Source of the DNA: a plasmid
Direction: 5' to 3' (one strand)
DNA: 64,000 nt
Assembly: GCF_054482595.1 (NCBI RefSeq)
Contig: NZ_JBTHVH010000001.1
The translations under genes were made by a program, and so were the position numbers. Below are positions 29,815 to 56,502 of the stretch, piece after piece. The notes under the pieces are model-generated. The model had not been told where the DNA came from and searched no databases. It worked only from the letters and a program-made list of their open reading frames with translations. Positions within the stretch are counted from its first letter, which is position 1, and every line of letters begins with the position of its first letter.

Positions 29815-32800
29815 TTATGCGTATTGTTGGATGACGGCCAGAACGTCCGCCACGTTGTGTTTTGTCTCGATAATCCACCAGTTACCCGGGAAATCGCTGT
29901 TCTTTGCCTTCGCTGGCAGCCAGCGAGCGCCGAATTTCGCCTTGATTGCGTCTTTCGCACGGAAAAGAATGCCTTTCATGCCGGACGCCTCCTGAAGCCC
30001 AAATACCTCGCCAGCGGCGAATTTTGGTGCGTACATCATCTTCAGGTCGGCGGTGGATACGCGATAATTCAGACCAAGAGACTGAGCTATGCTGGTGGCA
30101 TCACCCTGTATTGATGATAACTCTTCTTGTTTCTCGTTTCTGGCGGCAATTTCTTCCTCCGTGATGTTGCCAAGGGCCAGGTTTATCCGATCAGCGTCGG
30201 CCTGTTTCTCTTCATCGGTGCGCCCGGCAAGAACCGTGTTAATTCTCTGCAATATCTCCACATGATTCTTGCGCATGCTGAGCAATTCCGGCGTAACCTC
30301 GTTAAGATCCACCAGCCCAAGGATGGCAAGGTCGGAAAACATTGATACCAGGTTGTAGGTCATGCGATAGCTGAGTTGGCCATAGGCTGATGGCAACTGC
30401 ACCGCATCCATTTTATAGGCATCCATAAATTTAGAGCCGTCGTTTACGACATCCGCAATTGCCGGTGTGATTTTCCCTGTGGTGGCGGCCTCCCTGATTG
30501 CTGTTACCCACGATTGAGTCAGTGCGGCGACTGCATGATTCAGATTGGCTTCCCGTTCTGCTGCGATGCGCGCGCTTGCTGCGTCCATTGCCTGCTTGAT
30601 CTCGGCTTTATTGCTGTAAATGCCAATGGTGCCAAACTGTGCTGTGGTGATCTCATAATCTGACGCCCGGAACTCATGGGTACCGAAAATGGCATTGGTG
30701 ACCTCAAGTTCAGAATCCCCGTTACGAGTAGCCCCCTGGCTTGTTTTCTCCGGCATTCTGGCGATCGCATCCGCTATTTTCTCCTGAATTGCTTCAGGGG
30801 ATAGCGTATCTCCATATGACGCGATTACATCGCCATAATTGGAGCCAAACAGTTCAGTCAGGAATACTTCTGCCAAACGGACCTGGCGGTTATTCCCTTC
30901 AGACATCATACCAAGCACCCATTTTGCAATTGACGACTTCAGCGCGCCGTCACGGCGATCCGGGTAAACCGCATGCTTCAGTGGGTCCGTATAGGTACCA
31001 ACAAAATCAATGCTATAGCCTGACTCTGTAGTCTGAACGCCGTATGAGTCAGTGATTTTGATCATGCCGCGCTGCTGGAAACGGTAGAAATCGTCACAGG
31101 AAATGATGTCGTTAATCCCGGCGATGGAGACGCCACCACTGATTTTCTGCATAACAGCATCTTCATCGGGAGTTACATCCACCTGTTTATCCAGCGTCTT
31201 CACATCCCAGTTACCCGATTTGGTGCCTCTTAAGGTAAAGATGATCTCCACGTCTGCGCGCTGGCTGTCGAAGTCCAGCGACTTAATGCGAACGATATCA
31301 CCGGCACAATCGTAGTATTGGCCTACACGCCATGAGCGATCGCCGATAACAAGGAACTCATTCGCATGGTTAACCAGATCAGGATCAACATCCAGAATGC
31401 CTTTATTTATTGCATCCTCCACCAGCGGGCGCAGGCGTTTGATATCCGTCGCGGCCTTCTGAGTACGGTTCAATAATTTCTCATAGCGGGAGATGGCCTG
31501 AGAGATATTAGCCTTGCGCTGAATGGCGCTTTTCAACGACGCGCGATACTGTGCTAACAACATACGGTCTGTGTGATGGACACTCCCCCAGCGGGCCTTC
31601 CAGTCTGCGTTATCCGCTGCCTTGGCCATTGCCGCCTGTTTGAATTTAGCTACCTCGGCGGTGGTCTTTTCAAGTTCCGCTTTGCTTCGCTCTAATTCAG
31701 CGGTAAGTACCTCCACATCCTCGCCAGCTGCGTGCTGCGCCTTGATGTAGTTCTGAAGGTCGATAGTAGCCTGTTCTTTCTGGCGAGCGCGTTTCGCAGC
31801 TTTCGCCTTATCCATTTGAACCTGCATCATTGCCAGACGTTCGCCGTCATCCTTCGCGGTATACATCTGCATTTCGATCATGTCATTGGCGTCGGCGTTC
31901 TCCATTTCTGACTTATCTGAACGGAGGATATCGGAGATCCAGCCTGCTTTACGCTTCAGCGTCTTCAGTCGGTATTCATCGAAAGACCCCTTGCCGCAGT
32001 AGTAGTGAACGCGAACGCTTGCACGGTTGGAACCAACTCGGGCACCGCGACCGTTACGCTGTGCGATACTGGCTGGTGTCCACGGCAACGTCAGGTGGTG
32101 GATATCCGTCGTTCCTCGATGCAGGTTGATACCCACCTCTGCCTTTTTGTTGCAGATGATGATCGGAGTCCGGCCCTCCTGGAAGTCGGCTGCAATCTTT
32201 TCCAGACCGCCCAACGACATTTCATTTTGCTGCGCGATATAGGCGTCATACAGAGCCATTTGCTCGTTGTATTTCGCTATCTGTGCATCTGTTGGTTCAT
32301 CCGGTAGCTCTTTCGGCGGTTTAACCGCTTTCAGTTTCTTACCGGTTTTACCTGCCTCGGCAACCGTCTGAGCATTCAGGATCCCCACCTTTGAAGGTTC
32401 AAGGTTTAGAGCATTGCAGATAATGCGCTTGAGCTTCTGGTGCTGCGTTTTTTCATCGGTGAAGATGATTTGCTTACCTTCCGGGAAAAACTCCTTCAGC
32501 GTGGCGATCAGCTTCGCGTATTTCGGCGTAACGGGGTGAGTTACGGTCTGTTCGTCAATGCCAAACCTGGCCAGGCGCTTATTCACTTCCTGCTCGAACG
32601 CTTCCGGAACCTGCAACTGAATAAACTCGCCCTTATCTATCAGGGAGTATTGCGATTGCTGCGTGATTGAATCATCACTGTCGTCGTCTTCGCTGGTGGC
32701 TTGTTTAGGCAAACTGTCCGCCAGCTGCTGCACCGCATCGGCGTACTCCGGCAGGAAACGATAGGTGATCCGGCGATAGTACAGGTCCATGTCAGTACAT

Positions 32801-35800
32801 ACGCGGTCCATATCCCTGATTATTGAGAAGATCGGACGGGCTTTCTCGTGCTCAATCACGCCATCTTCATTGACCGAGGTCGTTACGCCATTGTTGGCTT
32901 TGGCCGCCGCTTCCGCCTGCTGACGCAATTCTTCATACGCCGCCAGTTGTTCTTCAGTAAGTGGTGCATCCTGCTGGTGTTCGTCCAGCTCCGGGATCTC
33001 CACGGTATCCTTAACGTCTTCCGCCGTTTTAAGCGTTACCCAGCGATGGAATATACCGCGCAGCGCATCAAGGTTTTCAAAGCCCACCAGCGCCATTTTT
33101 TCTTCAACTTCACCGCTAATTTTCTGTACCGTTTCCAGCCTGGTCTTGCCGAAGAATTTAACGAAGTCATCAGGACCGTAGATCCCCATGTTCTGCCAGT
33201 ATTCCTTCGGCAGAACATGAGAAAGCATGTTGTATGCATCGATCGGGGTGTTAACGACTGGCGTTGCAGTCAGGAGAACCGGCCCGCGCCCGCCATTCTT
33301 TTTCATCAGGTACGCGTTTTTAATTGCCATATCTCGCGCCGATTGCGCCACCGCGCTGGTGGGCAGATAGGCCAGTTGTGACGCTTCGCGACCATTTTTA
33401 TAGCTATTGCGGTAGTTGTGACCTTCGTCAGCGATCACACTATCGAAGCCCATATCCTCAAAGTACGGATACTTCTCTGCTTTTTCGGTGCCGGTATCTG
33501 AATACTCCGACAATACCCGGCGACGCGCAGCCTCTTTGCGGTGGGAGTCGGAGTCCATTGCGCTGGCTACGCGCCCGGCGGCAACGAAGTCATAAAGCAT
33601 ATCCTGTGCATGCTCATCTACGGTGTCATCACGTAGCGGAATGCGGGCGTATTGTTCTTTGGTAAACACGACTGCACGGTAATTTGAGTGCGGGATCGCG
33701 TTCATCCGCGCCGTGATAGTGGCTTCATCTGCCAGCTTAAGAGCATCGCGCATAACGGGAGTGCCATCTGCACCAACGACAGGTTTACCGTTCTCATCGA
33801 GCACCGGCACCAGGCGAATCTGATCGCCATCCATCAGCACATCAAGACCGACGAACAGGTAGTTACTGAATGCCTCTTCACTCAGAAACTCTTTTGCTTC
33901 GTAATACCAGTTTTCCAGCACTGATTTAGGCACTACATACGCAGTACGGGTGGAACGACCGTTCTCATAGTTGAACGCCTCAAGCGCCAGCGCGGTCGTG
34001 GTTTTACCCAGCCCGGTACCGAAGCCCAGGATGCCGCGCCCATCTTCGGACAGTCGGCGCACCTCGCTATTCTGGTAATCAAATGGCTGTCGCTTACCGC
34101 TTAATCCCTTCAACCCAAGCGGATCGCCAGAGTGTTCATACGGGATATTGCTATTGAACACATCGTTGTATTTGGCAACCAGCTCATCGTAGCGATCGTG
34201 CGTCTTGATCCACGTATTGAACTGGTCCTCAAGCAGTGCCATCTGCTCGCGGTAGCCGTTCGCCGTCGCGCTATCTTTGCCACCGATACGCGCACCATTG
34301 AGATACTTTTCCAGCTGTGCCGGGAACCCGGTCGCGTTTTCACCTGATTTACGGTCCCACTCGTAGCGGATCTCGCCTGTTTCTTTATCCTTGCGCTGGA
34401 CGACACCGTATCGGTGCCCGACGAACAGACCATCACCACCGTGATAGGTGTCAGAAACCATTTCGTCGCCTTCCAGCTGCACTGACTGCACATAGCGCAG
34501 ATCCGGATAGCCGTTTTCCTGCAAAAATTCCAGAATCACGGAACGGTCGAACCAACGGCTATTGAGCTTAAACCGGATATTCTCTGCTGGCGTCTTGATG
34601 CGCTTCTCTTCGATCGCTGCCAGCTGATTAAGGACGTTGTTCTTTACTGGACCGTCGGGGAGCGTGGCGAGGAATTCCTGTTTTGGAGCCACTATCTCGT
34701 TAATGTCGCCGCTGGTGGCGCGGGCGAACGGAACAATCCCGCCATACGGTGAAACCGCAATGCCAGGGGTGCTGGCCAATAAATTAAGCAACTCGTCATC
34801 ACTGGCTGGCAGTTCGCCGGTAAACGCAAGGCGGAAATCATCGAGCTGGATTGGATCGCGGGTAAGATCGCTATAGAGATAACGCAGGGTGTCCTGATAG
34901 CTGGTGGAGTCATAACTGGCGCTGGAATCATGCGTAACCAGCTTTCCTGTCAGCTCGTCAGAAATAGTGCCATCCAGCTTAATTGCACCACGGAAAGCAA
35001 ACCAGGCGCGCGCACCGCTCCCCGATAATTTCGCTATCGGACCGCGACCGGGGTTACCAAAACGGTCAATCTCTGCCTGCAAACGGGATACCAGAGAAAG
35101 GCGCTGCTGTTCGATTTGTTCAGCACTATGCCCGGCGGCCTTCATGTCCTGATATTCAATTAACATCCGGCCAATCATCGCTCCGCGATACAAGCGTTCA
35201 CGGTATTTTTCAGGCTGGCTGTTAATCCAGTCCACCAGCTGCACCATATCGTCGCTGATTGATGTGGTGTACTTATCGCGGACATTTGCCATCTGGGTAA
35301 ATGTCATACCGAGACGGCCTTCTGTTGTAGTCAGGTTACGCTGAAGAGCCTCCCAGCTATCCGCACCATAACTGGCAACCTCAATCTTCAGCTCCTTCCC
35401 GGCATCAGCTTCAATCCAGCGACCACCAGCATATTTTTGCCATACGCCATTAATCAGGCGCATTTCCCCTTCATCAACAACATCTGCGGTCGGTGACGGT
35501 TCAGCCATATCGAGCAAAGACCAGTCGATACGACTTTCGAAACGATGAATCAGCTTCGCTTTAAGAGCCTGGTTATCAATCTGCCCGTCGGCACGAACCT
35601 CAATACGCCCCTGGAATCCCTTCTCCTGAGTGCCATGAACAAACCGGCGGCCGTCCTTTTCAAACCACTTGCCAGAAATAAACGTTGGCCAAAGCACATT
35701 TGCCGATTCAAGAGTGTCTTCATCCACCAGGGGGATTTTCTCAGCCATCTCCGCCGGATGTTTGCGCATCAGCACCACGTCAACGACCGTACTGGTCCCG

Positions 35801-36582
35801 TTTGCGTCAAAAGTACCGGTAGGCAAGCGGTGGGCACCAAGAAATTCAGCTTTCCGTGATAGGCGCAGGCGTAACCGCTTCATGTTTGAACCTGAAACAA
35901 TGGACGGCGGCACAATCACGCACATGAATCCGCCTGGCTTTATCTTGTCCAGCATGCGGAGCATGAAGTAAGAACCCATGTCCGTTTCTTCTGCGTAAGG
36001 CTTATCGATGTTGCGTGTGTTATCACGACCACCGAACGGAACGTTACCCACAACATGGTCGAATGAATCGTTAGGCGTGCTTACAGCCAGTTGTTCGAAC
36101 GGGGAAATCTGTACGCTGTCTTCCGGATGTAACAGCTGGTTTATACGACCGGAAACACTGCTGATCTCAGTCGCGGTCATCACCGTACCAACCGGTTTTG
36201 TCTCATTAAAAACGCCGGTGCCCGCCGATGGTTCCAGAGTGTTACCTACGTCCGCGCCGTAGAGCTTCATGATCTCCCAGACACCTTCAGCGATCGGCTT
36301 TGGTGTGTAATATTCGGAGACGGACCCGCCAATGCCACCTTCACCGGTGTACCCAGCCAGGATCTGGCGCTGTTCATCTGTCAGTGTCGCGCCGTCCACC
36401 AGCGAATTAAGCAAATCTATCGCCTTCTGATTCGCCTCACGGCGCAGTCGGTCATAGCTTTTGCCTTCCACCTTTTCCACGCCGTATTTAATCGGCGCTC
36501 GGTGAGATGTTATTGCCCTAATGTATTTCAATATTTCGCTGACACTTGAACAGCGAAACACCCCCATAGATAGCTTGTTCAT
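29815..36582 (-). CDS. darB: DarB antirestriction protein (N6-adenine methyltransferase plus helicase domains)
   Basis: 2255 aa; EPSAGTG and NVPF methyltransferase motifs; GTGLGKT Walker A and DEGH helicase box. Confidence 0.9.
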   Translation of the reverse strand: MNKLSMGVFRCSSVSEILKYIRAITSHRAPIKYGVEKVEGKSYDRLRREANQKAIDLLNSLVDGATLTDEQRQILAGYTGEGGIGGSVSEYYTPKPIAEGVWEIMKLYGADVGNTLEPSAGTGVFNETKPVGTVMTATEISSVSGRINQLLHPEDSVQISPFEQLAVSTPNDSFDHVVGNVPFGGRDNTRNIDKPYAEETDMGSYFMLRMLDKIKPGGFMCVIVPPSIVSGSNMKRLRLRLSRKAEFLGAHRLPTGTFDANGTSTVVDVVLMRKHPAEMAEKIPLVDEDTLESANVLWPTFISGKWFEKDGRRFVHGTQEKGFQGRIEVRADGQIDNQALKAKLIHRFESRIDWSLLDMAEPSPTADVVDEGEMRLINGVWQKYAGGRWIEADAGKELKIEVASYGADSWEALQRNLTTTEGRLGMTFTQMANVRDKYTTSISDDMVQLVDWINSQPEKYRERLYRGAMIGRMLIEYQDMKAAGHSAEQIEQQRLSLVSRLQAEIDRFGNPGRGPIAKLSGSGARAWFAFRGAIKLDGTISDELTGKLVTHDSSASYDSTSYQDTLRYLYSDLTRDPIQLDDFRLAFTGELPASDDELLNLLASTPGIAVSPYGGIVPFARATSGDINEIVAPKQEFLATLPDGPVKNNVLNQLAAIEEKRIKTPAENIRFKLNSRWFDRSVILEFLQENGYPDLRYVQSVQLEGDEMVSDTYHGGDGLFVGHRYGVVQRKDKETGEIRYEWDRKSGENATGFPAQLEKYLNGARIGGKDSATANGYREQMALLEDQFNTWIKTHDRYDELVAKYNDVFNSNIPYEHSGDPLGLKGLSGKRQPFDYQNSEVRRLSEDGRGILGFGTGLGKTTTALALEAFNYENGRSTRTAYVVPKSVLENWYYEAKEFLSEEAFSNYLFVGLDVLMDGDQIRLVPVLDENGKPVVGADGTPVMRDALKLADEATITARMNAIPHSNYRAVVFTKEQYARIPLRDDTVDEHAQDMLYDFVAAGRVASAMDSDSHRKEAARRRVLSEYSDTGTEKAEKYPYFEDMGFDSVIADEGHNYRNSYKNGREASQLAYLPTSAVAQSARDMAIKNAYLMKKNGGRGPVLLTATPVVNTPIDAYNMLSHVLPKEYWQNMGIYGPDDFVKFFGKTRLETVQKISGEVEEKMALVGFENLDALRGIFHRWVTLKTAEDVKDTVEIPELDEHQQDAPLTEEQLAAYEELRQQAEAAAKANNGVTTSVNEDGVIEHEKARPIFSIIRDMDRVCTDMDLYYRRITYRFLPEYADAVQQLADSLPKQATSEDDDSDDSITQQSQYSLIDKGEFIQLQVPEAFEQEVNKRLARFGIDEQTVTHPVTPKYAKLIATLKEFFPEGKQIIFTDEKTQHQKLKRIICNALNLEPSKVGILNAQTVAEAGKTGKKLKAVKPPKELPDEPTDAQIAKYNEQMALYDAYIAQQNEMSLGGLEKIAADFQEGRTPIIICNKKAEVGINLHRGTTDIHHLTLPWTPASIAQRNGRGARVGSNRASVRVHYYCGKGSFDEYRLKTLKRKAGWISDILRSDKSEMENADANDMIEMQMYTAKDDGERLAMMQVQMDKAKAAKRARQKEQATIDLQNYIKAQHAAGEDVEVLTAELERSKAELEKTTAEVAKFKQAAMAKAADNADWKARWGSVHHTDRMLLAQYRASLKSAIQRKANISQAISRYEKLLNRTQKAATDIKRLRPLVEDAINKGILDVDPDLVNHANEFLVIGDRSWRVGQYYDCAGDIVRIKSLDFDSQRADVEIIFTLRGTKSGNWDVKTLDKQVDVTPDEDAVMQKISGGVSIAGINDIISCDDFYRFQQRGMIKITDSYGVQTTESGYSIDFVGTYTDPLKHAVYPDRRDGALKSSIAKWVLGMMSEGNNRQVRLAEVFLTELFGSNYGDVIASYGDTLSPEAIQEKIADAIARMPEKTSQGATRNGDSELEVTNAIFGTHEFRASDYEITTAQFGTIGIYSNKAEIKQAMDAASARIAAEREANLNHAVAALTQSWVTAIREAATTGKITPAIADVVNDGSKFMDAYKMDAVQLPSAYGQLSYRMTYNLVSMFSDLAILGLVDLNEVTPELLSMRKNHVEILQRINTVLAGRTDEEKQADADRINLALGNITEEEIAARNEKQEELSSIQGDATSIAQSLGLNYRVSTADLKMMYAPKFAAGEVFGLQEASGMKGILFRAKDAIKAKFGARWLPAKAKNSDFPGNWWIIETKHNVADVLAVIQQYA

Positions 36583-50832: not shown

Positions 50833-50967
50833 ATGCTAATAGGCTATGTACGCGTATCAACAAATGAACAAAACACTGCTTTACAACGAAACGCTCTTGA
50901 AAGCGCAGGATGTGAGCTAATTTTTGAGGACAAGGCGAGTGGAAAAAAGGCTGAACGACCAGAGTGA
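50833..50967 (+). pseudogene. cin: cin remnant: first 44 codons of a Cin/Hin-family serine invertase, then stop
   Basis: [44 protein letters not shown] then TGA; resolvase-family N-terminus with catalytic Ser. Confidence 0.6.
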
Positions 50968-51140
50968 AAAAGGCTTTTGATAGGTAAACTCTGGTCGTAT
51001 GAAAGTTAAATTTGCGTGGGTGCAGCATGCGCTCACTCTTGAGGCATGAACGGTAATCATCTGATAACTTGTAGCTCGATTATCCGGACGCACTGGAACC
51101 AGTCGATGCTTCCAGCGATCCAGATATTTCATTAAATGGA

Positions 51141-51551
51141 CTACGCCTCCGGGAACGCTGGCCAATTGACATCTGGTGCAGTGCTGGTATCCGTTGCGGT
51201 CACCGCATCGATATAATCCAGCACAGCGTTAAGACGGGTGGTTTCAGCCTGCGTAAGATTCCGCCCGGCCTGTAATTTCAGTTGAATAAGACTAATGGAA
51301 GCCATTGCGGTATCAATCAGCGACTGTTTTTTCTGTTCAGCGTCAGCTACCAGTTCATCATGAGAACGTTCCGGAGTGGGTGGCGCAGTAAATCCCCCGT
51401 CTGAATACACCCAGCCGATTCCGGGCTGCTCACTGATATCAGAAATATTAATGAGCTGCTGATTATCCGGCACTGTGAATTCAGCCTCGCCATCCCAGAC
51501 AATGACATTCACAACCATCCCATTTTCAATAACTGCATATGATGTATTCAT
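51141..51551 (-). CDS. tail fibre assembly/chaperone protein (U-like)
   Basis: ATG at 51551 overlaps S stop (TAATG); ends ...NWPAFPEA. Confidence 0.6.
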   Translation of the reverse strand: MNTSYAVIENGMVVNVIVWDGEAEFTVPDNQQLINISDISEQPGIGWVYSDGGFTAPPTPERSHDELVADAEQKKQSLIDTAMASISLIQLKLQAGRNLTQAETTRLNAVLDYIDAVTATDTSTAPDVNWPAFPEA

Positions 51552-54500
51552 TATGCAAACTCCTCGATAATACAAATCCCTGCAGCGCCTTTCCCGCCCG
51601 TCATACTGGTTCCGCTATAACCGGCATCGTATGCACCACCGCCGCCCGAACCATATGCCCGACCGATAACGCCACCGCCAGCGCCTGCGCGACCACCGCC
51701 CCCCCAGAACGATGATCCTCCTTCACCACTGACGCTGATATTTCCGGACTGACCGTCACCTCCATGCCCACCAATAATGCGGACATCACCAGTATTCGGC
51801 GCGCCTCCATTACCACCGTTCGTGTTTGTGACTCCTACTTTCCCGCCGCCTTCACCGCCAGGGGCTATTACCGTTCCGAACGAGCTATCACCGCCCTTGA
51901 GGCCGTTCGTCGCACCAACACCGCCGCCCCCACCTGCGCCGATAGTGACTGGATAACTATTCTGTGTCGGGGTCATTATTGAAATTATTGTCCCACCGGC
52001 CCCACCGCCAGCACCGAAAAACGTCTCGTTATTGGATGTAGCCTGGCAGCCACCACCTCCGCCACCGCCGCCCGTAATTGTGACCCTGATTCGTTTTGTT
52101 CCTGGCGTCGGGGTATACGTACCTGATGAAGTGAAAACCCGGGTATTCACCAAACGCCCAACATATCCGCTTGAATCGCTCAGGCCAAGGTTAGCAGCAG
52201 TTAAAGTAATATTTGCAGAACCATCAAACTTAACACCGTTGATAGTGCGTGCAGTCTGTAGTTTCGTTGCGGTTGCGGCATTACCGGTAGTGCTCTGATT
52301 ACCTGCTTTATTCACGCCCGGCAGGTCGATATTGGCACTACCATCGAATGACACTCCGCCTATTGTGCGTGCTGTTTGCAGTTTTGTTGCAGTTGCAGCA
52401 TTGCCGGTAGTGCTCTGATTACCTGTTTTATTCACGCCCGGCAGGTCGATATTGGCACTACCATCAAATGACACCCCGCCGATTGTGCGTACTGTTTGCA
52501 GTTTCGTAGCGGTTGCAGCATTGCCGTTCAAACTACCATTGATGCCGCCAGTAACATTGAGTCCATTACCGATCGTAACAGTACCATTGGCATTGTTAAT
52601 GATAAGCGGCCTTAAATTATTATAGGTTCCCAGGCTGTTACCCGAATTGGTCAACATGAAATATGTGTTTGAACCATCGTTTCGGATAAAGAATCCGTAG
52701 TTTCCGTAGGCAATGCGCAGACCATTCGCCGATTTTGAAATGATCTCACCAGTAGCCGTTAAACCGCCGTTGAGATTTCCTCCGGTTATTGGTAATGCGC
52801 CGACATCCGTGGCGGTCGGTTTAATGTGCGAACTGTAAATTACATATACAGTTCCATCTGTCAGGCCTGTTGGTTTATTCGCTGTATAAGATGGTGATGT
52901 ATGAATCGTTACGCTGGCGTTACTGGTATAATCCCACTGAATATTAACACGTGTGGTGTAATTACCTATTTCAACATAAACATCATAGGTATCACCGGAT
53001 GTATTCACCCATGCAAAATTAGTAAATCCAACCGATGTCCGTCGCCATAACGCACCAGTAAGACCTTTTGGATTCCCATTTCCCGCACGAAGAACAAGTT
53101 CAGATATACCAGCCTGCATAGGGGAGTTAACATTATATCCAGAACCACCAATCAGGCTTATGTAAACCACGGAACTGGACTGTGGCATGGTTACAGTTGC
53201 CAGCTTGAACCATCCAGTACCACCACTAAAAGACATTGTTGTTGAGTTGATCGTGCCTATAGACCTTGGAGTTAGCTCAATGTTTTTAGAACCGTCAAAC
53301 AACACCCCATTTATAGTTCTAGCGGTTTGTAACTTGGTCGCTGTCGCTGCATTACCGGATGTATTCTGATTACCCGCAACGTTAACACCAGGTAAATTAA
53401 TATTCGCAGTACCATCAAAGCTAACTCCGCCGATAGTTCTTGCCGTCTGTAGTTTTGTAGCAGTTGCCGCATTGCCAGTTGTATTCTGATTGCCAGTGGC
53501 ATTCACACCAGGAATGGAGTCCCTTGATGTATATACCTGCGCCCACGCTGACCATGCCGCATCAGTGTGATCTCTTCGGGAGCGAATGAAAACCGGCGCA
53601 TGTGCACCGCTCGTACCACTCCAGCCAATAAGCAACTCGCCCTCACCAGCAGCACTCGCACCTTTCATGTGCAATACGTTGCCATACGCGGTCGGGTAGC
53701 TATTGTTGTACGCCTCATACATCTGCAATCCAGTAGAAGCACCTTGTGTTGTATCGGTGAGCGCAGTAACACGCCCTCTGGACGCAATTGTTGGTATCGA
53801 AATGTTCGCAGAACCATCAAACTTAACACCGTTGATTGTGCGTGCTGTTTGCAGTTTTGTTGCAGTTGCGGCATTACCGGTAGTGCTCTGATTACCTGCT
53901 TTATTCACGCCCGGCAGGTCGATATTGGCACTACCATCAAATGACACCCCGCCGATTGTGCGTACTGTTTGCAGTTTCGTAGCGGTTGCAGCATTGCCGG
54001 TAGTGCTCTGATTACCTGCTTTATTCACGCCCGGCAGGTCGATATTGGCACTACCATCGAACGACACTCCGCCGATTGTGCGTGCTGTTTGCAGTTTTGT
54101 GGCGGTGGATGCATTACCTGTCAAAGATCCACTAAGAGCCACGGCACTAAGAGACTTAACACTTACATCCTGACCCCATCCGGAAACAACAACCTGACTC
54201 CACGCTGTCCAGTTTCCATTAACAACAAAGCGAACGTATATACGTTTTGTGTCGCTGTTAATCAGCGTTTGCATGTTCGCATAATCTGATCCCGTAGTCT
54301 TACGAATCGACTCTACACGAACCAAAAAGTTACCGCTTACGCCGTCAGGCTTATTGGTAATATTTGCACCACCTGCGACAGTTTTGCATTGATAGTATTT
54401 AACGGATCCAGCTTCTGTATTAGCAATAATCAAGTCGTTTAAATCAATAGCCCGGCCGTCAATGGCTTCCGGCTCGATGGCTCCTGCTATCCCGGCACTG

Positions 54501-55978
54501 AATGTAGCAGCGGCTGAAAACGCTGTCTTACCTTTGAAAGTCTGTTGAGAACTCCAGGTATTAGCTGTGCTCAACAGGGGGATCTTTTCGCCGCTGGTTC
54601 CGATTTCTCTTAAACCAAGGTATTGGATAACAGCCAGTGTGCTTGTTTTAGCCAGGATATCGCGACCGACTGACGTTAAATCAGTCTGGGAAACAGTGTC
54701 TGTACCGGTAAAGTACGGCAATTTATTTGCGCCTGTCGCAAGACCAGCAAGCGCGGTTAAAGTTGCATCCAGAGGCTGTTTGCCTGCCAGCGCATTTGTC
54801 ATTGTTGTCGCAAAGTTCGGGTCATTGCCCAGTGCTGCTGCAAGCTCATTCAGGGTATCAAGAGCTTCAGGTGATGAGCCGACCAATGCAGAGATAGCAG
54901 CTCTTACATAAGCGGTCGTAGCAATCTGCGTGTTATTCGTACCCTGTGCAGCGGTAGGCGCAGTAGGTATTCCCGTTAATGCAGGACTTGCTAAAGGAGC
55001 TTTAAGAGCCAGAGCATTGTTGATAGTTGTGCTGAAATTCGGGTCGTTATTGATCGCAGCAGCTATTTCTTTAAGCGTATCCAGTGTGCCAGGTGCACCG
55101 TTGATAAGTGCCGTTACAGCTGCCTTAACAAAGGCTGTATTTGCGATCTGCGTGCTGTTTGTACCTTGCGCTGCCGTCGGCGCGGTTGGCGTTCCTGTCA
55201 GACTCGGGCTTTCTATTGGCGCTTTGGTATCAGCCAGCTCTTTTACAGACTTAACGGCTTTAGGGGTAGCCGCCATTGTTTCGCTGTCGCTGTTAGTTGC
55301 GCTACTGAGCTGAACTAATCCCTTTTGTGTTGTGCTTGCATCCTGCGCCGTATACTTGCTTTTAGCCAGATCGTAGGCTTTTTTAACCGCCAGCGAACTT
55401 GCAGCGACATCACTTCTGGTACTGGTTACAGAGTCGGAAATTTCAATGCCTATCGCGAGATCGATGCGGTCGGATACATCTATCATTTCCTTAGTAATAG
55501 CAGATACGCCAGCAGGGATATTCACCGTACAAACAAGCAGTTCCCCATCTCCTAACTGATATGAATCGGTATAGGTTCTGGCAACAAATTCAGCCGCATG
55601 AATATGTGACGCGGTATTAACCTGATAAGAATCTTCTCCAAGGAGGTATCTTCCCTTCAGCACAATTGCATATTTCTTACCTGCGCTAAGTGCAAGAGAA
55701 ATATCCTTACGCTGCTGAATAGTTACCTGGTAGAATTCACCAATATTCACTGACGCCGCGCCAGCGGTTTTATCACCATCCACTGAGGTGATTAACAGGT
55801 TCATCCCACCGCCAGGCTTAGGAAAAAAACCGGCATAAAATCCAGGGTCAACAATTCCCCTGAATTTTCGGTTTAGCGCGGCTGACAGATATGGTTCGTG
55901 GTATTGCACATCAGCCACCAGAGCCAACGACTCGGGTGATGGGTAAGTAACCGATGTGACAACTGTAACGTCATTCAT
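51551..55978 (-). CDS. tail fibre protein S (1475 aa) with phage-fibre repeats and glycine-rich C-terminus
   Basis: ATG at 55978 with AAGGA SD (track ORF extends to 56065); about 8 copies of GNAATATKLQTARTIGGVSFDGSANIDLPGVN. Confidence 0.8.
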   Translation of the reverse strand: MNDVTVVTSVTYPSPESLALVADVQYHEPYLSAALNRKFRGIVDPGFYAGFFPKPGGGMNLLITSVDGDKTAGAASVNIGEFYQVTIQQRKDISLALSAGKKYAIVLKGRYLLGEDSYQVNTASHIHAAEFVARTYTDSYQLGDGELLVCTVNIPAGVSAITKEMIDVSDRIDLAIGIEISDSVTSTRSDVAASSLAVKKAYDLAKSKYTAQDASTTQKGLVQLSSATNSDSETMAATPKAVKSVKELADTKAPIESPSLTGTPTAPTAAQGTNSTQIANTAFVKAAVTALINGAPGTLDTLKEIAAAINNDPNFSTTINNALALKAPLASPALTGIPTAPTAAQGTNNTQIATTAYVRAAISALVGSSPEALDTLNELAAALGNDPNFATTMTNALAGKQPLDATLTALAGLATGANKLPYFTGTDTVSQTDLTSVGRDILAKTSTLAVIQYLGLREIGTSGEKIPLLSTANTWSSQQTFKGKTAFSAAATFSAGIAGAIEPEAIDGRAIDLNDLIIANTEAGSVKYYQCKTVAGGANITNKPDGVSGNFLVRVESIRKTTGSDYANMQTLINSDTKRIYVRFVVNGNWTAWSQVVVSGWGQDVSVKSLSAVALSGSLTGNASTATKLQTARTIGGVSFDGSANIDLPGVNKAGNQSTTGNAATATKLQTVRTIGGVSFDGSANIDLPGVNKAGNQSTTGNAATATKLQTARTINGVKFDGSANISIPTIASRGRVTALTDTTQGASTGLQMYEAYNNSYPTAYGNVLHMKGASAAGEGELLIGWSGTSGAHAPVFIRSRRDHTDAAWSAWAQVYTSRDSIPGVNATGNQNTTGNAATATKLQTARTIGGVSFDGTANINLPGVNVAGNQNTSGNAATATKLQTARTINGVLFDGSKNIELTPRSIGTINSTTMSFSGGTGWFKLATVTMPQSSSVVYISLIGGSGYNVNSPMQAGISELVLRAGNGNPKGLTGALWRRTSVGFTNFAWVNTSGDTYDVYVEIGNYTTRVNIQWDYTSNASVTIHTSPSYTANKPTGLTDGTVYVIYSSHIKPTATDVGALPITGGNLNGGLTATGEIISKSANGLRIAYGNYGFFIRNDGSNTYFMLTNSGNSLGTYNNLRPLIINNANGTVTIGNGLNVTGGINGSLNGNAATATKLQTVRTIGGVSFDGSANIDLPGVNKTGNQSTTGNAATATKLQTARTIGGVSFDGSANIDLPGVNKAGNQSTTGNAATATKLQTARTINGVKFDGSANITLTAANLGLSDSSGYVGRLVNTRVFTSSGTYTPTPGTKRIRVTITGGGGGGGGCQATSNNETFFGAGGGAGGTIISIMTPTQNSYPVTIGAGGGGGVGATNGLKGGDSSFGTVIAPGGEGGGKVGVTNTNGGNGGAPNTGDVRIIGGHGGDGQSGNISVSGEGGSSFWGGGGRAGAGGGVIGRAYGSGGGGAYDAGYSGTSMTGGKGAAGICIIEEFA
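52170..54130. repeat. three clusters of tandem about 129-bp coding repeats inside S (52180-52560, 53280-53520, 53800-54120)
   Basis: Near-identical DNA blocks read directly. Confidence 0.6.
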
Positions 55979-55989
55979 CAAGCATATCC

Positions 55990-56424
55990 TTATGCTGTAG
56001 TCGTGTTTATGGCCATAACTGCGGTATATGTTTTGCCCACATACAGCGAGTCTTCCTGGACACAAATAATGGCGATTGGCTTGTTCTCGTTATCCAGAAC
56101 AACCAGAGTGTTGAATGGGTAGTTTTTCCCTTTCTGCAACTGGCTTTGATCAAGGTCCATTCGGACAGTAATTATCCCGCCTGAGTAGGTTGGGACGAGG
56201 TTGATGGTGCAAAATTTACTGGTCAGTTCTGCCAGATCGAAAGCCTTTGGCAGTTCTCCAATCTCATAAGTGCCATCTCCTTTCTTAGTAACCAGTGAAC
56301 TGGTACCGAAAACGGCCTTGCTGATTAAAAATCGAGAGCCTTTGTTAATGGACGATTCAGCGCGCCGCTGATAGTAATAGTCCAACAACTGACTCTTATA
56401 GAGGTTTGTTGAGACGTCAGACAT
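55990..56424 (-). CDS. R-like tail protein (144 aa)
   Basis: Position upstream of S. Confidence 0.45.
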   Translation of the reverse strand: MSDVSTNLYKSQLLDYYYQRRAESSINKGSRFLISKAVFGTSSLVTKKGDGTYEIGELPKAFDLAELTSKFCTINLVPTYSGGIITVRMDLDQSQLQKGKNYPFNTLVVLDNENKPIAIICVQEDSLYVGKTYTAVMAINTTTA

Positions 56425-56474
56425 GATTTTCCCTAATCAATGTTGTGAAGCCTCATTGTAAGAAAAGTAACTTG

Positions 56475-56499
56475 TCACCCCGCCCTGCGGACGGGGTGA
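56475..56499 (-). terminator. hairpin TCACCCCG-loop-CGGGGTGA between gene 16-like and R-like
   Basis: Read directly. Confidence 0.3.
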
Positions 56500-56502
56500 T
56501 TG

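Follow-up and report, generated by a model that had tools for sequence, protein, structure and literature searches.

Organization of the S locus

The window, a 64-kb stretch of plasmid DNA, carries on its minus strand an intact tail-fiber gene, S (51551..55978; ATG at 55978, stop codon at 51551-51553), which is preceded by the Shine-Dalgarno sequence AAGGA and encodes the 1475 residues counted by the initial annotation. Its product matches the tail fibre protein family phrog_454 (1788 bits) and a 98%-identical RefSeq protein of 1474 aa annotated as tail fiber protein (WP_077251300.1), and the locus shares 99.9% identity with the E. coli plasmid pEC258-2; no NCBIfam family was found for S, three S segments, R or Tfa. 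Upstream lie R (55990..56424, minus), a 144-aa tail-fiber structure/assembly gene (phrog_2032, E=6e-84) within a block 95% identical to P1, and the P1 late promoter LPs (56455..56473, minus), located by alignment to the annotated P1 LPs (7028-7046), with identical -22 and -10 boxes and one mismatch in the spacer. The constant N-terminal part, Sc (residues 1 to ~482; 54531..55978, minus), is 95% identical to P1 at the nucleotide level up to 54531 and includes Phage_fiber_2 repeats (Pfam PF03406) at residues 176-254. The locus has an Sc homologous to that of P1 and an R-S operon behind LPs, as expected of a P1-type S; judged by its sequence, S encodes the tail fiber of a P1-type element, as had been proposed, here an E. 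coli phage-plasmid.

Immediately 3' of S lies the gene of a 136-aa tail-fiber assembly chaperone, Tfa (51141..51551, minus), with a Shine-Dalgarno sequence GAGGAG and an ATG that overlaps the S stop codon (TAATG); Tfa is predicted to be translationally coupled to S. The protein matches Pfam Caudo_TAP (PF02413, E=3.2e-22, residues 32-135) and phrog_188 (E=8e-31), and its predicted model shows a beta domain followed by helices, with the conserved C-terminal helical domain and the gene position of that family. Its identity to P1 U is 28% and confined to the C-terminal 89 aa. Of the U-type assembly gene announced earlier, the Caudo_TAP chaperone thus stands and orthology to P1 U does not: Tfa belongs to the family of P1 U without being its orthologue.

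A fixed distal part behind an orphan cixR site

Near the end of Sc lies an orphan cixR site, TTATCCAATACCTTGGTTTAAGAGAA (54605..54630, minus), identical to P1 cixR at 26/26 positions and formerly the boundary of the invertible C-segment. No second cix-like site was found in the 64-kb window at up to 3 mismatches, and the invertase gene cin is a pseudogene, a stub of 44 codons (50833..50967, plus) whose residues 1-43 are identical to P1 Cin and are followed by a stop; in NZ_CP060935.1, PGAP labels the stub 'recombinase family protein, missing C-terminus'. No S-related DNA was found in the rest of the window, be it a cassette for an alternative Sv' or a multi-inversion system like that of p15B. 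cixL, Sv' and U' are absent, and with them the invertible segment with two alternative C-termini (Sv/U and Sv'/U'). Because cin is truncated and a second cix site is missing, the fiber should be unable to switch and is predicted to be locked with a single fixed C-terminus. Truncated cin and lost C-segments have already been described in P1-like plasmids (PMC6906374).

The part of S beyond cixR spans ~990 aa, in which three repeat clusters alternate with non-repeat segments (residues ~480-618, 739-832 and 913-1040) and a gp34/Mu-S-type trimerization module. This Gp34_trimer-type domain (residues ~1041-1127; 52598..52858, minus) matches Pfam PF21446 (E=1e-28) and, in the PDB, Mu S (5yvq, E=2.6e-35) and T4 gp34 (4uxe/5nxf, E ~6e-20).

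A glycine-rich distal tip of the Pam3 gp24 type

S ends in a 211-aa distal module (residues 1265-1475; 51554..52186, minus), in which a TNF-like beta-sandwich runs continuously into a glycine-rich domain with ~11 glycine motifs, among them GGGGGGGG (residues 1303-1310), GAGGGAGG (residues 1322-1329) and GGGGRAGAGGG (residues 1426-1436). Glycine makes up 38.9% of residues 1301-1467, as against 13.8% of the whole of S, in line with the earlier description of poly-glycine motifs split by variable segments near the C-terminus; over the last ~170 aa, glycine reaches 39%. In close and diverse homologue sets alike, the glycines are kept and the segments between the motifs vary. The domain search and structure prediction that had been advised were both run: the module matches Pfam PF21722 (Gly_rich_2) with E=3.7e-11 over model positions 2-224 of 226, and AF2 models it with a pLDDT of 95.7 and a pTM of 0.90. 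A profile of the tip family (59 sequences) matches residues 71-276 of Pam3 gp24 (7YFW/7YPX) with E=6e-16, a value to be read with the high compositional bias score of 54 bits; the superposition of the AF2 model on the solved Pam3 gp24 domain gives this match independent support. The profile was needed, since phmmer with the tip alone returned from the PDB chance antibody matches and a sub-threshold Pam3 match. In the phage collection, a tblastn search with the tip yielded phage Goslar alone, which is not evidence of rarity, as the low-complexity filter probably masks the glycine runs. The true family of the S tip is that of Pam3 gp24, a TNF-like domain joined to a Gly_rich_2 domain.

In 133 of 138 representatives, the Gly_rich_2-type domain lies at the C-terminus; searching the literature by the names Gly_rich_2 and PF21722 returned unrelated plant papers only. 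Pam3 gp24, with a reported 39% glycine, forms a 3:3 complex with gp25 and is found in the virion (PMC9608196). In its Klebsiella-phage homologue TFP_Y, host-range mutations lie in the glycine-rich domain, and LPS triggers DNA ejection (PMC12671077). The model supports the view that the glycine-rich C-terminus of S is a folded distal domain of receptor-binding type. That its variable distal loops may bind the receptor is suggested indirectly, by the concentration of variation between the glycine motifs and, by analogy, by the mapping of the Klebsiella-phage host-range mutations to the same domain (PMC12671077).

The initial annotation had likened this end to the tips of T2-type gp38, and a gp38-type adhesin of the T2/S16 family, fused to the fiber and working as gp38 does, would share its composition, with glycine-rich motifs parted by variable segments. 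In the Pam3 gp24 type, every fiber chain ends in a fused tip that is folded with the help of a Tfa, while gp38 caps gp37 as an adhesin in its own right; in S, the glycine-rich module forms the C-terminal end of the fiber chain, not a separate polypeptide, and the sole downstream gene is that of the Tfa chaperone. Pfam GP38 gave no match in S even at E<=10, the PDB, searched with the profile at E<=10, yielded Pam3 and no gp38 entry, and hhalign of the tip-family profile against S16 gp38 returned a probability of 1.2%, with just a 14-column poly-G run aligned. The Pfam and hhalign results do not support kinship of the tip with T2/S16 gp38. The N-terminal domain of gp38 docks on gp37, and gp38 shows a beta-helix instead of a TNF-like sandwich (PMC9608196). 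In the literature, gp38, Pam3 gp24, Bxb1 gp33 and ALK are grouped as one structural class of glycine-rich PPII bundles, within which Pam3 gp24 and gp38 superpose weakly, over 52 C-alpha atoms (PMC9608196, PMC13243192). On this grouping, the resemblance of the S tip to gp38 is limited to the class 'glycine-rich PPII-helix bundle'. The present data speak against gp38-family membership of the tip, and we regard a gp38 in this position as very improbable.

We give a slimmer chance still to the glycine-rich end being no receptor-binding tip at all but either a tail of low complexity, whether disordered or collagen-like, or else an intramolecular chaperone cleaved after assembly. Poly-glycine is frequently disordered, and several phage fibers are generally known to carry removable C-terminal intramolecular chaperone domains, the peptidase S74 domains mentioned in PMC12143355 among them; however, the AF2 model is very confident (pLDDT >=90 in 197 of the 211 residues) and superposes on a domain of known structure that mature Pam3 virions contain (PMC9608196, PMC9942802), Pfam shows no peptidase S74 or other chaperone domain in S, and a separate Tfa gene follows.

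The tip and its chaperone as a mobile cassette

Positions 52192-51160 of the window are 88% identical to the adjoining fiber and Tfa genes of prophages whose baseplate genes are of the Mu gp45-48 type, and Tfa itself is 87% identical to the Tfa that follows a 308-aa chromosomal fiber. The tip cassette was matched in 470 of 5426 complete E. coli genomes (~9%) and in 57 plasmids; plasmid L011 has the same cassette as far as the cin stub, and the cassette recurs in a second lineage of phage-plasmids, whose replicon type differs and whose tail genes have diverged. Tip and Caudo_TAP chaperone form a mobile cassette whose parts travel together.

Repeat clusters and length variants of S

The three clusters hold eight repeat units (3+2+3) with the core GNAATATKLQTxRTIxGVxFDGSANI, confirming the number noted before; the period is 40 aa, or 120 nt (TRF period 120), and not the ~43 aa stated there. 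Cluster A (residues 619-738; 53765..54124, minus) has units starting at residues 619, 659 and 699, cluster B (residues 833-912; 53243..53482, minus) has two diverged units starting at 833 and 873, and cluster C (residues 1150-1269; 52172..52531, minus) has units starting at 1150, 1190 and 1230. A 325-nt stretch of cluster A (53801-54125) is 91.4% identical to its counterpart in cluster C (52208-52532; BLAST E=6e-131), bearing out a near-identity that had been put at ~250 bp. Units A1, A2, C1 and C2 are mutually 88-96% identical (C1/C2 versus A1/A2, 89-96%), whereas A3 and C3 share 73% and the cluster B units 51-73% with the others. The repeat block has no solved relative except a weak match to the phage L Dec tail-fibre-like motif (E=0.05), and Pfam leaves the 40-aa units unscored, its Phage_fiber_2 matches lying elsewhere, at residues 176-254.

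Relatives with the same tip have S proteins of 1023, 1110, 1475 and 1515 aa, with 5, 2, 8 and 9 repeat units, respectively, and the breakpoints between these length variants fall inside repeat units. Alignment breakpoints delimit, between near-identical units, an internal module (52532..53884, minus) made of A3, cluster B with a globular segment on either side, and the gp34-type domain; this module is missing from the 1023-aa S of NZ_CP023381.1, covered to at least 80% in 57 plasmids and partly in 395. The intragenic duplication proposed at the outset fits both the identity matrix of the units and the copy-number variants, which support a repeat block probably shaped by intragenic duplication or unequal recombination. 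The near-identical units coincide with recombination breakpoints and copy-number changes among relatives.

The least credible explanation is that misassembly produced the enlarged S with its clusters, or that S is the decaying remnant of a defective element. In its favor, 120-nt repeats at 86-96% identity may mislead assemblers, cin is a pseudogene, PGAP marks the chaperone as partial (N-terminally incomplete) in one near-identical plasmid, one record annotates just the C-terminal 561 aa of S, and a functional impairment is suspected in P1-like plasmids whose C-segment is altered (PMC6906374). Against it, the intact 4.4-kb ORF and the same arrangement recur at 97-99.9% identity in at least 9 complete plasmids of independent origin, with duck, poultry, cattle and human sources in several countries; clusters A and C can be told apart at 9% of positions; promoter, Shine-Dalgarno sequence and translational coupling are all intact; and across hundreds of genomes, Tfa normally has 136-138 aa. 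This recurrence, together with the series of lengths and repeat numbers, excludes the misassembly that had been raised as an objection.

A more ambitious reading, to which we assign a low probability, makes S a serial multi-module receptor-binding device, in which the non-repeat segments between clusters would be former tips kept as secondary binding sites, and the near-identical A and C blocks would permit RecA-dependent loss or regain of the 451-aa internal module, as between the natural variants of 1475 and 1023 aa. If so, homologous recombination would vary fiber length and specificity within populations, replacing the lost Cin switch.

Interpretation and significance

Taken together, these results very probably describe the S gene of a P1-family phage-plasmid in which a fixed, mosaic distal region of ~990 aa, with a Pam3 gp24-type tip that forms a cassette with its Caudo_TAP chaperone, has taken the place of everything beyond cixR. 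On this account, the sequence 3' of the old crossover site would have been swapped for a fixed mosaic end, closed by the 211-aa Pam3 gp24-homologous tip and supplied with its own chaperone as a cassette. By analogy with Pam3 gp24-gp25 and the Klebsiella-phage homologues, the fiber would be a trimer bearing three tip modules, and the chaperone would form a 3:3 complex with the tip, thereby folding and trimerizing it. Receptor, trimer state and chaperone stoichiometry are each carried over from relatives that share ~30% identity, and are putative to that extent.

The Gly_rich_2-type class of receptor-binding domains counts at least 7996 cluster representatives and, as far as we found, has been studied only in one cyanophage and a small number of Klebsiella phages. 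Annotations miss many of its copies, labelling them "carbohydrate kinase" or "hypothetical protein". P1-like phage-plasmids are vehicles of resistance genes, and recognizing the tip as a host-range determinant of some of them would help to predict the hosts they can reach; the S variants also offer a clean natural series for fiber-length variation via repeat recombination. Mosaic tail fibers, cassettes of tip and chaperone, and P1-like plasmids that have lost the Cin switch were already established, and no concept is changed. S is a real but ordinary case of phage tail-fiber mosaicism, and its practical value is modest.

Comparison with known systems

One of the closest known systems is Pam3 gp24/gp25 (PDB 7YFW, 7YPX), which resembles S in its ~39% glycine, in its number of glycine motifs (12, versus ~11 in S) and in having the tip at the C-terminus of the fiber chain, followed by a Tfa-type chaperone gene. 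By contrast, Pam3 gp24 is a minimal fiber of 280 aa with an alpha-helical shaft and direct baseplate docking, whereas the S tip caps a P1-type shaft of 1264 aa; sequence identity between the tips is only ~30%, and the S-linked Tfa has no detectable sequence similarity to gp25.

P1 shares with this locus R, LPs, Sc (residues 1 to ~482) and cixR at 95-100% identity, and the position of S between baseplate genes and lydC/lydA/lydB. In P1, however, S is 987-988 aa long and its Sv is Mu-like, and the phage also carries the alternative Sv'/U', a cixL site and a complete cin. Here Sv is replaced, U has given way to a different Tfa, cin is cut down to 44 codons, and Sv', U' and cixL are all absent; the comparison with P1 S that had been recommended shows no canonical P1 Sv at the C-terminus. 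The cassette is the same in the 308-aa fiber with its 138-aa Tfa in E. coli and Shigella prophages with Mu-type baseplates, at 88% nucleotide identity and, in protein, 88-90% for the tip and 87% for Tfa. Unlike S, that fiber carries the tip on a shaft of ~95 aa that is fixed to a Mu gp48-type baseplate, and has neither the 40-aa repeat array nor a P1 Sc. It is often mislabelled 'carbohydrate kinase'.

The likeness to S16/T2 gp38 (PDB 6F45; Pfam GP38) is of class level: glycine-rich motifs parted by variable segments and, for the S tip as suggested by the literature grouping, a putative PPII-type lattice with variable distal loops and a putative place as receptor-binding tip of a long fiber (PMC13243192). 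Unlike the S tip, gp38 is a separate protein on the gp37 trimer, with a beta-helix and a three-layer lattice of 10 motifs. Part of other assemblies are gp33 and gp29 of mycobacteriophage Bxb1, which are tail-tip 'wing brush' and tail spike proteins of a siphophage, and the glycine-rich domains of ALK/LTK, which belong to metazoan receptor ectodomains binding cytokines.

A chimeric tail fibre in a P1-family phage-plasmid

An E. coli phage-plasmid of the P1 family makes up the window, and its minus strand carries sit, pmgA, bplA, gene 16, R, S, lydC, lydA, lydB, hdf and darA in the order of P1, with the P1 late promoter LPs conserved at 56455-56473. Plasmid pEC258-2 (NZ_CP097097.1) matches positions 51000-56500 at 99.9% identity, and another eight complete plasmids, of poultry, cattle and human origin, match them at 97-99%. 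The tail-fibre gene S extends on the minus strand from an ATG at 55978 to a stop codon at 51551-51553 and encodes 1475 aa, as the initial annotation had it, and all the elements described there were found. Locus annotation differs between near-identical plasmids; in NZ_CP097097.1 (11265-12950), the annotation of S covers no more than its C-terminal 561 aa, as a 'glycine-rich domain-containing protein'. The antisense ORF at 52032-52298 (+), 88 aa with a poly-proline run, is not a gene; it simply arises opposite the poly-glycine codons of S. Elsewhere in the window, 29815-36582 (-) is a very large ORF encoding 2255 aa, and no tRNA gene was found across the whole 64 kb.

Repeat units form the shaft and mark module junctions

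S contains eight repeat units with the core GNAATATKLQTxRTIxGVxFDGSANI, arranged, as proposed, in three clusters: A (aa 619-738), B (aa 833-912) and C (aa 1150-1269). The units recur every 120 nt (40 aa), rather than at the roughly 43 aa first estimated. The two clusters described as near-identical are A and C, which share 91.4% identity across 325 nt: units A1, A2, C1 and C2 are mutually 88-96% identical, identity drops to 73% between the third units A3 and C3, and the B units are far more diverged. The proposed duplication within S holds. The three non-repeat segments between the clusters (53885-54541, 53483-53764 and 52859-53242, corresponding to S aa ~480-618, 739-832 and 913-1040) had no sequence match in Pfam, NCBIfam or PDB, and two of them end in the motif W-x-A-W-x-Q-V. 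PGAP calls a related S a 'pyocin knob domain-containing protein', and given this name, the segments may be lateral knob domains.

Among relatives with the same tip, the distal C-terminal module, S varies in length and repeat number: 1023 aa and five units in NZ_CP023381.1, 1110 aa and two units in CP099080.1, 1475 aa and eight units in the window and pEC258-2, and 1515 aa and nine units in NZ_CP020522.1, where cluster A gains one unit. The 1023-aa S corresponds to that of the window less ~451 aa, a stretch that extends from unit A3 to where C1 starts, and the junction lies within a repeat unit, in its conserved first part; this internal module occurs alone in many other plasmids (57 at ≥80% coverage, 395 partial matches). 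In most P1-like plasmids with the same upstream part, similarity breaks off where cluster C ends (query positions 4256-4293), and a related prophage cassette also begins there. These length variants and breakpoints at repeat units indicate that the repeats are real. They are structural shaft units of the fibre that also mark the sites of module joining, duplication and loss, a pattern of classical tail-fibre mosaicism.

The inversion switch is lost and the fibre is locked

The match to P1 (95% identity) spans from upstream of R to just beyond cixR, a perfect 26-bp site inside S (54605-54630, minus strand), and ends there. This site is an orphan, since no second cix-like site lies within the 64-kb window, and neither Sv' nor U' was found when the window was searched for S-related DNA. 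Adjoining lydC, cin is reduced to a stub of 44 codons (50833-50967, plus strand), whose first 43 residues are exactly those of P1 Cin before a stop codon, and which, in a plasmid nearly identical to this one, carries the RefSeq label of a truncated recombinase. The stub covers the position of the annotated P1 inversion enhancer. With the second cix site, Sv' and U' missing and cin cut to 44 codons, the fibre is locked in a single form. Truncation of cin, and C-segments that are altered or missing, are already published for P1-like plasmids (PMC6906374), in which lydC-cin-Sv'-U'-U-S is a recognised hypervariable region (PMC9603915).

The tip and its chaperone travel as one cassette

Directly after S lies a 136-aa chaperone gene, tfa (51141-51551, minus strand), whose ATG overlaps the S stop codon and which has its own Shine-Dalgarno sequence, GAGGAG. 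The initial reading as a U-type assembly gene stands as far as the family is concerned (Caudo_TAP, E=3e-22), but Tfa is not a P1 U orthologue, with 28% identity over the C-terminal 89 aa only. A Tfa of the same length in NZ_CP060935.1 (6717-7067) is flagged by PGAP as a partial pseudogene, probably an artefact, since 136-138 aa is the standard length in hundreds of genomes.

The tip and Tfa are one cassette. Window positions 52192-51160 are 88% identical to a gene pair of E. coli and Shigella prophages with baseplate genes of the Mu gp45-48 type, comprising a complete 308-aa short fibre and a 138-aa Tfa. This fibre is widely misannotated as 'carbohydrate kinase' (8001-9343 in the E. coli chromosomal loci L003-L006). 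The pair adjoins an Acyl_transf_3 gene, the fibre lying immediately upstream of it; this gene may encode an O-antigen-modifying acyltransferase, which would hint at O-antigen or LPS as the receptor. Cassette matches occur in 470 of 5426 complete E. coli genomes (262 of these at ≥80% coverage) and in 57 plasmids. One carrier, NZ_CP058619.1, represents a second phage-plasmid lineage with another replicon type and diverged tail genes; its sequence follows that of the window at 91% identity through the tip, Tfa and spacer exactly as far as the cin stub, so the truncation is older than the spread of the cassette. The jumbo phage vB_EcoM_Goslar encodes a related tip (MK327938.1, 99196-99525; 76% identity over the module's first 109 aa) and a related Tfa (69% identity), indicating that the cassette reaches virulent jumbo phages too.

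The glycine-rich tip belongs to the Pam3 gp24 family

Glycine makes up 38.9% of S aa 1301-1467, and the three poly-glycine motifs reported earlier lie at aa 1303-1310, 1322-1329 and 1426-1436. Their likeness to gp38 adhesins had been proposed; the tip is indeed of a receptor-binding type, but kinship with gp38 is rejected: Pfam found no GP38 domain in S even at E≤10, and hhalign of profile A3, an alignment of 59 diverse members of the tip family, against S16 gp38 gave a probability of 1.2%, aligning the poly-G run alone. Pfam assigned Gly_rich_2 (PF21722) to aa 1284-1472 (E=3.7e-11), and a Gp34_trimer domain to aa 1041-1127. Against PDB, profile A3 matched the cyanophage Pam3 tail fibre gp24 (7YFW, 7YPX) over the whole module (E=6.4e-16), gp38 being absent even at E≤10, and the AlphaFold model from the same alignment was very confident (pLDDT 95.7, pTM 0.90). 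We conclude from these results that the tip is a member of the Pam3 gp24/Gly_rich_2 family, with a TNF-like sandwich continuous with a glycine lattice.

An exhaustive search (E≤0.001) retrieved 7996 cluster representatives with this type of tip, which forms the C-terminus in 133 of the 138 full-length matches. Seven PHROG tail-fibre families carry it, including phrog_454, the best family match for the N-terminal, P1-like portion of S. The protein was already in RefSeq and its domain in Pfam and PHROGs, with a solved structure of a homologue and a published loss of the Cin switch; the present analysis demonstrates which domains this fibre has, how the cassette is built, that the fibre is locked and where the recombination breakpoints lie.

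Variation in the family sits between the glycine motifs, the glycines themselves being conserved: among close relatives, column entropy averages 0.05 at glycines versus 0.30 at other residues, and in the diverse set 1.0 versus 2.5. The same layout, conserved motifs and variable distal residues, has been described for Pam3. Tips of the gp38 and Pam3 gp24 types share only a broad structural class, glycine-rich PPII bundles (PMC9608196, PMC13243192).
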